Assembly: GCA_051294375.1 (NCBI GenBank)
Contig: JBJCIZ010000744.1
Coordinates: 1,602,262 to 1,666,261 of the forward strand
Reading direction: 5' to 3'
DNA: 64,000 nucleotides
Source of the DNA: Paraspadella gotoi
Lineage: Eukaryota > Animalia > Chaetognatha
Shown here piece by piece: positions 670-63,546 of this stretch. The translations under genes and the position numbers were made by a program. The notes below the pieces were generated by a model. That model was not told the DNA's origin, did not search any database, and saw nothing but the letters and a program-made list of their open reading frames with translations. Numbering within the stretch: position 1 is the stretch's first letter; every line of letters starts with the position of its first letter.

Positions 670-3600
670 ATGTCGGAGAAGACGACGACGCAATTGGCGA
701 TCGTGGCCGAGACGACGATCCCCTTCACAGCCTTTCGATGTCGTTGGGTTCCCTCTTCGGCCAGGTGGAGAAAGAGTTGGTGGGAGGGAAGGGGATGGAT
801 GAAATCCGCGCTACCAATAATAAAATTAATCAATTCGTTTAAATAAATAAGGTATCTAGCCAATGACTTTTGGACAGGCTATGGTCGTTTACTGCCTCCA
901 ATCACGCTTAAAAGATAATAACGTAGCAGGACCCCCACAAGCTTTCAATTAAGACTCTCTCTCTCAGTCTTCCCTATTTCTATTGTATTGGAAGCTCTTT
1001 CGGGGCGAGCCGGGATTGCAACGATCAATTGGTAGGGAGAAATAAAGAGGCTGTTATGGCAACGGAGGGACATGTGTGATACCTGGGTTGTGAGGCATCT
1101 CCCGACAGCTGGCGCTCAGGGCTTTGGACCTGCAGTGACCCCACCCCATGTCACTGGCGTGTTTATGCCGACACCATCACGCTTTAACCAGCGTGACCGT
1201 GAGGGGATTGAACCCGGAACTCACGGTTGGTGAACGAGTTTCACACTGTCGCGAAAAGGGGGAAGTTGGAATACACTGCCGCACAAAAAAAAGCGACTGG
1301 TTAGCTCTTAATACACCTTTATTTTTTTTTTCAATTAAAAAAAATATATAAGAGAACTATAGCTCTTTTATAGAGCTATAGATTGGCGGAATAAAAATTA
1401 AAATTAGCAACACAGGAAACGCTTGGTCTCGTTTGACTTTTCTGCCTTTTCTTCTTTTTTCAGAAAAGGCAGAAAAGCCAAAGGAGACAAACCTGCGTTG
1501 TTAGTTTAGCAAAACTTTAAAGTCAGAATGTCAAAACCGAACCTGAGGAAAAAAACTATTTCCATGGGTTAACAAGGTAATGCTTTCGAGTCGTCTTTCG
1601 TTTCTTCCAACCCCCCCCCAAAAAAAAAAAATTCTACAAAGAATGTGATTGTGGTTGTATTTTCGTTTTTTCCTCTTCCAAAAGTAGTTTTATATGGCGG
1701 AGTCGCAGACATGAGTTTTGGTAGTCCCATTTGAGAAACGGACCAGAATGATTAATTTTCGAATACACGTATGTTGCACTGGAATGGGTTGGAAATGGTT
1801 TTCGTAATTAATCGAGAAAACATTTTAAATTAAGTAACTCGTCTTTAATTTCAACGTGACTGGAACTCTACGCACTTCTATTTCTCGCTGGAAGTTCCCC
1901 CCCCCCATGTTATTTTAAAATTGCTATTTTGTTAGTATTTCCACATCCATTATCGTGATTTTATTACAATAATTAAATCTGTTCGAATTTTTAACGATTT
2001 AAAATCATTCGTCTTTTTTTTTTTTTTTTTTCCATAAATGTTTGATTTTCATTTTCAAGAGTCTTTTTCTTTTTGGTTGAATGTTGAAACGCACTGTTTT
2101 TAAATCTCAATGATGGCGTCCGGTGCAGTTCGAAGAGTCTTCAACCAAACCGTCAAACTTCATATGGAAATGACGACTCAGTTGGAGCTCAAGGTGAGTG
2201 GAAGGGTGTGGGGTAGGAGGGAGGAAGAGCGGTGGGGCGGGGCGGGAGAAAGATTGGGACGAAGAGAACGTGGAGGGGTATGTTTGTTAAAGGGCAAACT
2301 TTGTGTCACGAGCCGATGACCAGTTGCAGACCAAAGTGGCAGCGTCGAAAGTCTCCGCGTTGCTTGCGTCCCACGGTACGTCAACAGTTTCACTAGAGAG
2401 AGAGAGGGATTGGGAGGAAGGTCGGGCAAATGAAGATTGAGGTTTATCTGGGAGGGAACTTGAAGAGAAGAAAGTTACTGGCCCAATTGCATAAGGCGTT
2501 CGTCGGGTGATGACACAATAACATATAATTGACAGACAACATTATCATTTCATTGTAAATAAATGACATGAATTAAGATAAAAGAGTTGAGCGAGAGGAG
2601 AGAAATTTTGAAGAAAATCGTGGGTTGGAATTTGAGTGTGCAAAATGTTTATTAAATGTTTATTAAAAATGTTTATTAAAAATGTTATTAAAAATGTTTA
2701 TTAAAAAAATAAGGGACGGAATAAGAGTTGCGAGAGAGAAGAGTGAAGTCAGAAGTGTTGGGTAGGAGAAAGTAGAGAGAAAGAGTGAAGTCAAAAGAGT
2801 GTTGTTGAGTGTTGGACAGAAGTGTTGAATAGGAGAGAGTTCACTTTATCCCCTCCCCCCTTTTCCACCCCTACCTTTTCCACCCTTTCTCCTCATTACC
2901 CCTCTCCCACCTCCTCCCCCTTTTCCCCCCCCCTTCCTTCCCCCCTTCCTTCCCCCCCCCATCCCCGATCAGCGAGTTGATCTAAAACCGGTGAAGCAAA
3001 TCCTCGTCGCCTACGATCCGTGGAAATCGGATTGCGCTTCGGCTCAAACAGTTTTTTTTACAACATCAGCCTCGACGAAGGTGATTACTTCATTCATGAG
3101 TTTATTATTACTGTTATTACTATTTTTTTATTTTATTATTTATTTTTTTAAATTATTAATTATTAAAGACAAACTGTAAAACGCTGATGAAGGCTTGAAA
3201 AACAAGTCGAAACATGTCTGTTTTTATATAAATAAAATTCGTTGCAAACCCAAAAACTTTGTCAATCTCTAAAGATTAAGATAATGGAAGGACCAATCCT
3301 GTTAATATAGGTTCAAGTGGATATTTAACTAGCGACTTACTTAATGGTTTGAAGGTTACTTGGCTGGCTTCTTGGTAAGACTAATGAACGAGAGTTAGGC
3401 TTGCAATGTATTCAAGTATAGATCTGTGAGCTAGCAAGGGCATAGTGGTCCAAACTACTCCATCCCACTCTCTTTTTCTCTTTCTCCCTCTCTCTCCCAA
3501 GTCCGCGAAACGAACCCGGCGGCGAGCATCCGCACCGAGGTCAAATCCGACCAATCGGACCCGACGGTCCGCGTCACCTTCAACGACGGCGCCATCGTTA

Positions 3601-60736: not shown

Positions 60737-63546
60737 ATGGCGGATTCGATGGAGACGATGGATTGCGAGACCAAAGCGGAGACTGCCGCGGCGACGGACG
60801 CGGCGGCTGCCGCGCCGGCGCCGGCGGCTGCTGCCGCGTCTGCGGCGGTCACCGCGGAGGCAGAGGCGGAGGCTGCGGCGGCGGAAGAGCGCTCGAAGAT
60901 GAAACCGGAAGAGATGACGTCCAAGGATTATTACTTCGACTCTTACGCTCATTTCGGGATTCACGAGGTTTGTGATGGGGTTGGGGGGTCTGCTGTTGCT
61001 GTTGTTATTTATTATTTATTTATTTATTATTTTATTTGTTATTTACGCGGGGAAGAAATTGGATAATAGAAGACGATAGGTTGGGTAAAGGACAAAGGGC
61101 GAGCTCGATTTGGGTTTAGGCCTGAAGGGATATAACCTTAACTCTCGTCCGATTTGCACTGGAACGTTTTTTGTACGTCTCTTTCGTTCTCCTTACAATA
61201 GCATTAATGAAACTTAGTTATGGATGATAATTAATAAATCAATTAATTAATTATTGTCTAAATTTAATGGAGATACATTGGTATTTTTTGCGTTATATAT
61301 TTTCTCCCCCCCCCTTTTTCCCACTCATTTCTAGGAAATGCTCAAGGACGAGATCCGCACGATGACCTACCGCAACTCGATGTATCACAACAAGCACCTC
61401 TTCCGCGGGAAGGTTGTTCTCGACGTCGGGTGCGGCACGGGCATTCTCTGCATGTTCGCCGCCAAAGCCGGAGCCAAGAAGGTCATCGGGATCGAGTGCT
61501 CCAACATCGTCGATCACGCCAGAAATATCGTTAAGGTGAGGTGGGTAGGGTTTGTCTCTTGGATATGCACGGCCTTAAGTAGGCAATAATGATTATGATA
61601 ATAATAATAATAACTAATAGCATCAGTTTCGCTACAACATGACTCGGTATTTTTTCTAACTATCCAAGTATCCATGCTATTTATCTTACCTTTCGTCTCG
61701 CCAGTCTTTCACCCACGCTTTCATTCTTCTGCCTTCCATCTATCCAGTATTTCCTCCATGCCTTTTTCCATGCTTCCTCCGATATTTCCGCTATTTCATT
61801 CATGCTCTCTTTCATCCTAGTATCATTATTTCTTTTCTGTCCTATCATTATTTATGGTCTACTACTAGCAATCATTCGTTCTCTAAATCTTCTCTCCACC
61901 TTCCTTCCATCAATCAATCCGTTCACACATCAATCAATCCATTCCCCCATCAATCAATCCATTCTCCCAGGCCAACCACTTGGATGGCGCCGTAGAACTC
62001 ATTAAGGGCAAAGTGGAGGAGGTGACGCTGCCCGAGGGGATCGAAAAAGTCGACATCATCATCTCCGAGTGGATGGGCTACTGTCTCTTCTATGAGTCAA
62101 TGCTGAGCACGGTCCTCTACGCGCGGGACAAGTGGCTCGCACCTGGCGGACTCATCTTCCCCGACCGGGCGACGCTTTACGTGTGCGCGATCGAGGATAG
62201 ACAGTACAAGGACGATAAGATCAACTGGTGGGATCAAGTAAGATTTTTTGAAGATTTTTTTCTCAATCTCATTTGCATATTGTCGTATTTTCGTTTGGGT
62301 TCATTAAATTATTTTTCTTTTCATTCAAAGTTAATTACTATAATTTTTCGATACCTAATAATATTAGTTGTTTGCTACATTGGTTGGTTTAATGCTAGAT
62401 TGGATATTTGTTTGTATAATTATTGGATTTACTATCGCTTAAACGGCTTCTTCAATGCTCAGGTCTACGGATTTGACATGAGTTGCGTCCGAAAGGTCGC
62501 CATCGCGGAACCGCTCGTCGACGTCGTGGATCCCAAGCAGGTGAGCTAAATAATAGGCCTAGTTAATATGTAAATGATTTTTAAGCAAATTAATTTTTGA
62601 ACTTTAAAGTAGACAGAGTTAACTGATTCTTTATAACTGAACATTTGAGGTGGTGACCAACTCGTGCCTTCTTAAAGAGATAGATCTCGCGACTGTCAAA
62701 GTCGAAGACTGCACCTTCTCTACGCCATTCCAAGTATGACAATTTTTTTCTTTTTGTTTCAACTACGTATTGATGTTACATAAATTTGTTTAATAAATAT
62801 AAAAAGTAATTCATTCATTAAAATAAGCTATCAAGCCCATAAATTTGGAGACTGTAAAGGCTTTCGTGGGTTTAGGTTTGCATCCGTCTTACAAAGTCAG
62901 GGGCAAATAGCTTATTTATTAAATGAATGGATAATTGTTGTTGTACCAAGTTCATGATAATAACATAGTAGGACTCTTAGACTCTAAGTATCATCGCAGG
63001 AGTATTAAGCCACCAAATGCAAATCTGATCGGAAATTGAAATATAAAAATAAATTGTATACTAATCTTTCCCTCCCCTTAAGTTAACGATGCGACGCAAC
63101 GATTACGTTCACGCACTCGTCTGTTTCTTTAACATGGAATTCTCTCACTGTCACAAGAGGATCGGCTTTTCCACTGGTCAGTTAAATGGAGAAAGTATTG
63201 AATTTTAATAAGGTTTTAAGTTTGTTTTAAACTTTGTATAAACTTACCTTTCAGCCCCGGAATGTCCTTACACCCATTGGAAACAAACGGTTTTCTACTT
63301 CGACGATTATCTCACCGTTAAAAAGGTTAACGACCCGCCGGAATAAAATCCAAAATAATAAGTAGTAATTATATTCACTCATTGTGGGGAATACACGTGA
63401 ATTTTTGTCAGGGCGAGGAGTTGCACGGAGTGTTTGCGTGCAAACCCAACGACCGCAACGTGCGCGATCTCGACTTCAGCGTTCAAATCGACTTTCAAGG
63501 AGAGCTCGGCGAAATGAAGGAAGAGTTGAAGTACAAGATGCACTGA
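60737..63546 (+). CDS. PRMT1: Protein arginine N-methyltransferase 1, 8 exons
   Basis: [65 protein letters not shown]. Confidence 0.97.

Follow-up and report, generated by a model that had tools for sequence, protein, structure and literature searches.

Predicted type-P5 twisters with a palindromic, loop-less P1 in mostly tRNA-headed repeats of the chaetognath Paraspadella gotoi

The repeats of interest lie in a 64,000-nucleotide (nt) stretch of the Paraspadella gotoi genome (contig JBJCIZ010000744.1 of assembly GCA_051294375.1, positions 1,602,262–1,666,261 of the forward strand; hereafter "the window"), where they occupy introns and intergenic DNA. Judged by their sequence, they belong to several families that share a circularly permuted, type-P5 twister ribozyme layout, in most families behind a tRNA-like head that is itself preceded by a conserved leader. 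In every family, the P1 segment of the putative ribozyme is a short palindrome without space for a loop. We favour, at a probability of roughly 0.55, the reading that the repeats are non-autonomous retroposons that would spread by way of dimer-cut tandem transcripts and circles, as twister counterparts of the Schistosoma Sm-alpha elements and of the retrozymes that lack long terminal repeats (non-LTR retrozymes). The loop-less palindromic P1, the tRNA-like heads with upstream leaders, the 3 bp P2, the A-C/G-U form of T2, and the tandem junctions go beyond a first-pass annotation of this DNA, in which the twister layout was described.

Several repeat families share a type-P5 twister layout

The window was scanned with a descriptor of the P5 layout, using 30 shuffled windows as a control. 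Eight matches were obtained: six at score 8 (versus 0.07 per shuffled window at a score of at least 8), and two at score 7, one of which is a real copy (40271, minus strand) and the other AT-rich noise (54865, minus strand). A strict regular expression recovered one copy, and a loose one gave mostly noise. Homology searches of the window yielded 26 repeat pieces—10 complete cores, 14 decayed or partial copies, and two pieces without a twister part—distributed over families A (14 pieces), B (2), C (3), E (3), D (2) and G (2). The number of families is four to six; because B, C and E have P3 and the 3' tail in common, the conservative count is four (A, D, G and B/C/E). In a relaxed parse of 20 regions, nine exceed the maximum (25.0) of 120 random windows and the region at 51264 scores 24.5; the other ten lie in the null range, and are counted through sequence homology alone.

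The first-pass annotation had proposed four or more families with a permuted type-P5 twister, in about 20 full or partial copies. The first of these proposals is borne out by the families above. The second holds in that homology gives 26 pieces; a complete core is present in only 10 of these, and none reaches the Rfam threshold. The residue order that had been described is that of the Rfam Twister-P5 consensus, as seen in the Rfam alignment, and the listed variants of T1, P4, P2 and P5 are all present in the sequence (the CCU/AGG and UUGG/CCAA examples come from a decayed copy at 29893, parsed manually).

Pairs in the 10 complete cores were counted by a coordinate parse, because MAFFT misaligned family A against B/C/E. 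Pairing is found in 31/31 cells of T1, 20/20 of T2, 28/30 of P4 and 27/35 of P2; T1, T2 and P4 entered the selection of copies, and so their counts are not independent. T1 takes the forms UGG/CCA, CGG/CCG, CCG/CGG and UUGG/CCAA, and T2 is either GC/GC or AC/GU. The catalytic GA, the AA at the predicted cleavage site and the U of L4 are each retained in 10/10 cores, and the AA of L4 in 9/10; both E copies carry C in place of the first A of AAGC. P2 is 4 nt long in B, C and E and 3 nt long in A, D and G. In family A, the first P2 pair switches from G-C to U-A on both strands together, which supports the 3-nt register.

Covariation inside the window, as claimed in the first pass, is seen in two ways. 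Firstly, when strands are swapped between families, the paired fraction falls to 0.74 (T1), 0.84 (T2), 0.50 (P4) and 0.58 (P2). Secondly, 11 pairs are changed on both sides in alignment A2 (seven rows, family A absent, row D shifted by one column), compared with 5.1 in shuffles; none of 500 shuffles reaches 11. On these grounds, we regard the type-P5 layout of the repeat families as confirmed at the level of sequence.

Covariance-model searches, which had been suggested as a check, gave a mixed outcome. Rfam Twister-P5 matches best at 23593–23635 (minus) and 60099–60141 (plus) with 25.8 bits (E-value 0.32 on the window and 0.0006 locally), and twister-P1 matches 1094–1169 (minus) with 21.1 bits. 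All of these lie below the gathering scores (37.6 bits for Twister-P5); the window contains no Rfam match at gathering threshold, and no Rfam twister match of any kind was obtained over families D and E (26840–27400). A model built from the copies themselves (R1) recovered its seven training copies, 17959–18042 (E 5e-6), three A copies (E 0.06–0.72) and two noise matches; its structure had P5 off by one column, and it adds little. Single-copy folds of four twister regions gave z-scores of -0.4 to -2.2, which say nothing about a pseudoknot. Beyond the window, a D-like pattern scan of metagenome contigs returned 16 loci, all 16 of them chance matches in which the remaining pairs were absent on inspection, and a family A motif scan of viral contigs returned one locus, also a chance match.

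The copies and pieces in the window are as follows.

26859–27088 (plus): family D full unit; leader of ~29 nt, tRNA-Gly(CCC)-like head 26888–26960, core 26972–27028, 3' tail; P1 GGCGCT, predicted cut after 26986; sharp ends, ARAGORN 85%
47822–47948 (minus): family D copy, twister internally deleted
12533–12668 (plus): chimera of the D leader, the 5' half of the D tRNA head and the 5' half of an A twister (P1 AGGCTT)
799–1000 (minus): family A copy; complete core 863–906, 4-bp T1 (UUGG/CCAA), decayed P1 (AGGCAG), 5' end undefined
23531–23673 (minus): family A copy, intronic; complete core 23594–23635, P1 AGGCCT, predicted cut after 23621
24587–24707 (minus): family A copy; core deleted between P1 and T1
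29651–29775 (plus): family A copy, core decayed
40267–40420 (minus): family A copy; complete core 40287–40328, P1 AGGCCT, P5 broken
41741–41907 (plus): family A copy; P1 AGGCCT, P4/T1 deleted
43608–43673 (plus): family A 3' piece (P5' and tail)
48885–48969 (minus): family A 3' piece
59875–60202: family A head-to-head pair; 59875–60079 (minus) without P4/T1, and 60077–60202 (plus) 5'-truncated, with complete core 60099–60140 and predicted cut after 60113
61110–61123 (minus): family A fragment (P1 AGGCCT, cleavage site, P2)
62782–62959: second family A head-to-head pair; 62782–62903 (minus) decayed, 62890–62959 (plus) a 3' part, short microhomology at the join
1056–1281 (minus): family B unit; leader, B box at ~1205–1214, complete core 1118–1182 (P1 TGTCGGCA), shared 3' tail
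51252–51390 (plus): family B copy, 5'-truncated; near-intact core 51273–51333, P1 shortened and decayed
11846–12101 (minus): family C unit; leader, A-box-like motif at +54, complete core 11909–11970 (P1 TCCTAGGG), tail
30078–30323 (plus): family C unit; core 30200–30261, P1 palindrome broken (TCTGAGGG)
33243–33441 (minus): C-related copy, decayed (P1 TACCGGCG)
27178–27378 (minus): family E unit; tRNA-like head with A and B boxes, core 27239–27301 (P1 AGCCGGTC), tail; C for the first A of AAGC
17935–18009 (minus): family E 3' half
29272–29345 (plus): B/C/E 3' tail alone
29782–29990 (plus): family G unit; leader, tRNA-like head with A- and B-box-like motifs, decayed twister (P1 CGGCCG)
30340–30455 (minus): family G leader and head only

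P1 is a palindrome without a loop

P1 is the segment between T1' and the predicted cleavage site, N^AA. It features in neither descriptor, and was not used for copy selection. In every family it is a palindrome of 6–8 nt that leaves no space for a loop: AGGCCT in A (6 of 9 matches), GGCGCT in D, CGGCCG in G, TCCTAGGG in C, TGTCGGCA in B, AGCCGGTC in E and TACCGGCG in the C-related copy (the P1 row of the copy at 24630 was unusable here). Taking the best-preserved P1 of each of these seven families or subfamilies, the innermost pair is Watson-Crick in 7/7, and the next pair in 6/7 with one G-U. The central tetramer is self-complementary in four different forms (GGCC, GCGC, CTAG and CCGG), a property of 6% of tetramers in the window.

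In energy calculations, the P1 self-duplex lies at -7 to -11 kcal/mol across the seven (sub)families. The best hairpin that a single P1 can form is positive in energy (+2.7 to +5.6 kcal/mol; six computed, G left out), so that P1 does not behave as an intramolecular hairpin. A strand-swapped dimer is computed to be 11.7–13.7 kcal/mol more stable than two monomers in 5/5 cases, counting nested helices only. With no space left for a loop, the palindromic P1 of one copy is predicted to pair with that of another, as in dimeric hammerheads. In two papers on metazoan hammerheads, a short palindromic helix III impedes cleavage of the monomer and allows that of dimers, an arrangement thought to permit cutting in multimers and not in monomeric circles (PMC4209133, PMC6765202). 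Our more specific proposal, which we hold tentatively and at somewhat less than even odds, is that these are natural strand-swapped dimeric twisters, in which, owing to the loop-less P1, only tandem or paired RNAs would be cut efficiently and the monomer circle would be spared.

Heads, leaders and ends of the elements

In most families, the sequence places the twister behind a tRNA-like head and the head behind a conserved leader. ARAGORN lists the D and E heads among nine calls at its 85% threshold and makes none at 95%; calls at 60–80% were set aside as noise. Of 15 B-box-like motifs, four fall no more than 90 nt upstream of a twister site, compared with 0.2 expected. Families D and E have tRNA-like heads, B has a B box only, and C an A box only. 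The A box lies 38 nt from the element start in D, 40–42 nt in G, 54 nt in C and 20 nt in E. Transcription from an internal RNA polymerase III (Pol III) promoter starts ~10–20 nt before the A box; the leaders of D, G and C would therefore need read-through from a preceding unit.

The ends of the units also carry information. In the 11 aligned copies of family A, leaving aside two without tail, the 3' end is the same throughout, and the 5' ends are ragged; the family also forms two head-to-head pairs with the 3' ends outward. In D, 9 nt of the leader (26876–26884) are complementary to the tail (27043–27051), and the two ends of B/C/E units can pair if G-U is allowed, with the sense strand giving the better pairing in 4/4. 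No copy in the window begins at the cleavage site, and no convincing target-site duplication was seen by eye in nine flank pairs. Runs of four T are absent, as they are in 55–82% of shuffles, and circular and linear folding give similar z-scores.

Minimal cores of type-I hammerheads, each with stem III palindromic, are additionally present at three places in the window: 3184 (plus), 45556 (minus) and 45736 (plus). The latter two lie in 131-nt arms that are 99% complementary and arranged head-to-head around a (CT)n run; by analogy, these arms may be Penelope-like. All three hammerheads belong to another repeat, and the twister units carry no type-I hammerhead.

Copy depth and head-to-tail joints

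Contigs of four sequencing runs from other individuals (X5, X7, X8 and X9; X5 and X9 labelled as DNA) were compared over positions 22200–29500. Summed contig depth in X5 is 569,871 for D and 418,556 for A, compared with about 6–73 in most repeat-free bins; this depth is not a copy number, and suggests that A and D are present in thousands to tens of thousands of copies. Element depth in X7 and X8 was not used as evidence of expression, because introns or DNA could give rise to it. Together with the fixed 3' and ragged 5' ends of family A and the tRNA-like heads, the high depth agrees with the earlier suggestion of high-copy, multi-family retroposons.

The ends of D are sharp, with 112 contigs at 26859 and 131 at 27088 in X5 (84 and 120 in X9). 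A head-to-tail joint of D units (27088->26859) is present in eight contigs of X5 and five of X9, and in none of X7 or X8. Single contigs join A and D (23587->26859, 23673->27008 and 27090->23541), suggesting that elsewhere in the genome the two families are often adjacent or have recombined. Predicted cleavage positions are absent from the best-supported loose ends listed.

A proposed cycle and its alternatives

The cycle that we favour would proceed as follows: (i) in a rare tandem array, the A and B boxes of one unit would drive Pol III read-through into the next; (ii) the P1 of one copy is predicted to pair with that of a second, completing two active sites; (iii) cuts at N^AA would free a unit RNA that ends in a 5'-OH and a cyclic phosphate; (iv) by analogy with hammerhead retrozymes, RtcB would circularise this RNA, and re-cleavage would be limited since the lone P1 of a circle cannot close a hairpin; and (v) a reverse transcriptase (RT) acting in trans, perhaps Penelope-like, would prime at the tail end and usually stop after one turn. 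The outcome would be dispersed monomers that start with the leader, most of them dead ends. The guess of a Penelope-like RT is prompted by the head-to-head pairs, by the three minimal hammerheads in the window, and by a proposal in PMC7761336.

A number of points weigh against this cycle. Its cleavage, circles and transcript ends are predictions or analogies. There is no tandem array within the window, and the tandem joints account for <0.1% of the depth over D and leave the letters between the joined ends unread. No RT frame emerged from 136 scans of long frames (41 + 95; the window holds 236 frames of at least 80 amino acids, and those outside the 136 mostly overlap host exons). No tRNA head is established for family A, and the E A-box, just 20 nt from the start, fits a plain short interspersed nuclear element (SINE). 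A changed P2 length has been suggested to harm the active site (review, PMC5408937); P2 is shortened to 3 nt in A, D and G, and only 27/35 of its cells are paired. With regard to P1, (i) the seven (sub)families are related, and are not independent instances, (ii) the palindrome is broken in 3/10 complete cores (853, 30191 and 51264) and in two decayed A copies, and (iii) a P1-less mini-twister retains full, wild-type activity (PMC5408937), such that a monomer with a 6-nt linker may be able to cleave and may not strictly need to dimerise.

The three P1 points speak equally for the reading that the repeats are the same retrozyme-like elements with a twister that is efficient as a monomer, the palindromic P1 being either the remnant of a hairpin without its loop or a minor helper. 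We consider this unlikely: four different self-complementary tetramers would require repeated double changes. In addition, the intron carrying a sense D copy is spliced in RNA contigs (26777->27635), a weak argument that assumes the insertion to be present in those individuals.

A somewhat less likely possibility is that the repeats are plain SINEs of tRNA origin that stay linear, with transcription beginning at the leader and insertion by target-primed reverse transcription. Their internal twister would act slowly or not at all in monomers, and would contribute nothing to propagation. The sharp 5' and 3' ends of D, the dispersed monomers, the scarcity of tandem joints (<0.1%), the position of the E A-box at +20, the closing stem formed by B/C/E ends (sense strand better in 4/4) and the 3-nt P2 of A, D and G would all be at home in such elements. 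They would not account for the retention of catalytic residues, for the covariation of T1, T2, P4 and P1 across families with unrelated heads and tails, or for the leaders of 38–54 nt that D, C and G have ahead of the A box.

The head-to-head arrangement is typical of Penelope-like elements (PLEs), and both the two family A pairs with outward 3' ends and the three minimal type-I hammerheads, whose stem III is palindromic and of which two lie head-to-head, would suit non-autonomous pieces of Penelope-like pseudo-long terminal repeats (pLTRs) that carry a twister in place of the hammerhead; no circle would be necessary. Neither an RT nor a GIY-YIG frame is found in the 136 scanned frames, no autonomous partner is seen, and we know of no pLTR with a tRNA head; this origin appears improbable. 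Finally, inverted segments of DNA-level repeats (related to Helitrons or to miniature inverted-repeat transposable elements) could mimic a twister, as the short end complementarity of B/C/E, the Tc1-like remnant described below and the unmet Rfam gathering score might suggest, and we give this very little credence: neither the T1 and T2 pseudoknots nor catalytic residues left unpaired belong to an inverted repeat, the end pairing leans on G-U pairs and favours one strand, family A is 5'-truncated, and target-site duplications were not seen by eye in nine flank pairs.

Relation to known systems

The cores agree with type-P5 twisters (Rfam RF02684) in the order and identity of core residues, in the T1, T2, P2 and P4 pairings, and in having P5 at the ends. 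They differ in the loop-less P1, where the Rfam alignment skips 14 model positions, in the 3-nt P2 of A, D and G, in the AC/GU T2 of A, in the C in AAGC of E, and in scoring below the gathering threshold.

Like Sm-alpha and Sj-alpha, the repeats are short, high-copy units that combine a tRNA-related Pol III head with a ribozyme, self-cleaving in those elements and predicted to be so here. In the Sm-alpha cycle, Pol III transcribes tandem SINE-like units from which the ribozyme frees monomers, and single copies of the Schistosoma SINE-like elements are thought unable to propagate (PMC6765202, PMC2770079). The repeats differ from these in having a twister for the hammerhead, in occurring mostly as dispersed monomers, and in forming several families with different heads. 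With metazoan non-LTR retrozymes (PMC7229834) they share a non-coding unit of 200–260 nt with one ribozyme each, and some retrozymes need dimeric ribozymes; those units have type-I hammerheads, tandem arrays of 170–400 nt units and demonstrated circles, with RtcB circularisation also demonstrated (PMC7229834), whereas here tandems are rare and circles are proposed. The repeats may work like both groups and are members of neither, because they contain no hammerhead and their circles are inferred.

The dimeric minimal hammerheads of PLEs (PMC4209133) likewise have, beside the cleavage site, a short palindromic stem whose formation takes two copies; they are of a different ribozyme class, and no PLE open reading frame (ORF) is linked to the repeats here. 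The twister T-variants of Perere-3 and RTE elements (PMC8501958) are a further case in which a non-LTR retroelement carries a twister whose P1 is altered. In these variants, the ribozyme sits at the 5' end of an RT-coding long interspersed nuclear element (LINE), inserts start at the cut, and the target-site duplication forms P1 (PMC8501958). Here, in contrast, the ribozyme is internal and permuted, with no insert starting at the cut and no ORF. Type-P1 twisters have been reported in small circular-RNA contigs (PMC8216279). Our literature searches returned neither dimeric twisters nor twister-bearing tRNA SINEs in titles or abstracts, with subscription papers mostly beyond their reach.

Host genes and other features of the window

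The window is gene-dense animal DNA. Pfam matches include MRPL53, FYVE, SRR1, tubulin, DnaJ/PAM18, WD40, RING, HlyIII, C2H2 fingers, JAB, Med15, MRPS34 and PRMT. The nearest PAM18 proteins with a named source come from many animal groups, at 55–63% identity. All recognised host genes lie on the plus strand, and minus-strand frames have only weak Pfam matches (E of at least 0.001); same-strand genes are possibly organised in an operon-like manner. Relative to host genes, six complete cores are antisense and four are sense, without bias. Splice joints in contigs of runs X7 and X8 confirm the introns around 23531, 24587, 26859/27178 and 29272. C2H2 zinc-finger gene segments are tandemly duplicated (26590–31415 and 32557–36716, 70–80% identity), and the RNA contig joint 26777->27635 falls within this region.

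Other repeats in the window are twister-free. A decayed Tc1/mariner-like transposase remnant lies at ~20829–21360 (weak HTH_Tnp_Tc3_2 match, E 0.008). Dispersed or inverted repeats are found at 33047–33148 / 42529–42642, 47972–48097 / 51957–52101 and 16600–16838 / 19724–20024; the last pair flanks a single-exon RING gene (18117–19199), with which it possibly makes up one mobile unit. An intronic 14-nt motif containing the octamer ATTTGCAT has seven matches compared with 0.04 expected: 11390, 31489, 36095 and 62265 (plus), and three one-mismatch copies; three copies extend to 26–31 nt. A long imperfect hairpin at 1400–1508 matches microRNA families weakly, far below gathering scores.

Significance

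In the literature examined, the only role ascribed to genomic twisters in retroelements is the 5' trimming of RTE-type LINEs such as Perere-3 (PMC8501958). If the repeats described here do contain dimeric twisters, this would be a case of convergence with dimeric hammerheads, and would establish a class of retrozymes built on the twister, represented in a single animal genome by thousands to tens of thousands of copies. The repeats would also provide a supply of natural dimer-gated twisters and of 3-bp-P2 variants, and would mean that Rfam thresholds overlook a large eukaryotic twister population. More broadly, a dimer-type P1 twister in a tRNA-headed retroposon would show that neither the tandem/circle strategy nor its dimer switch depends on the class of ribozyme.

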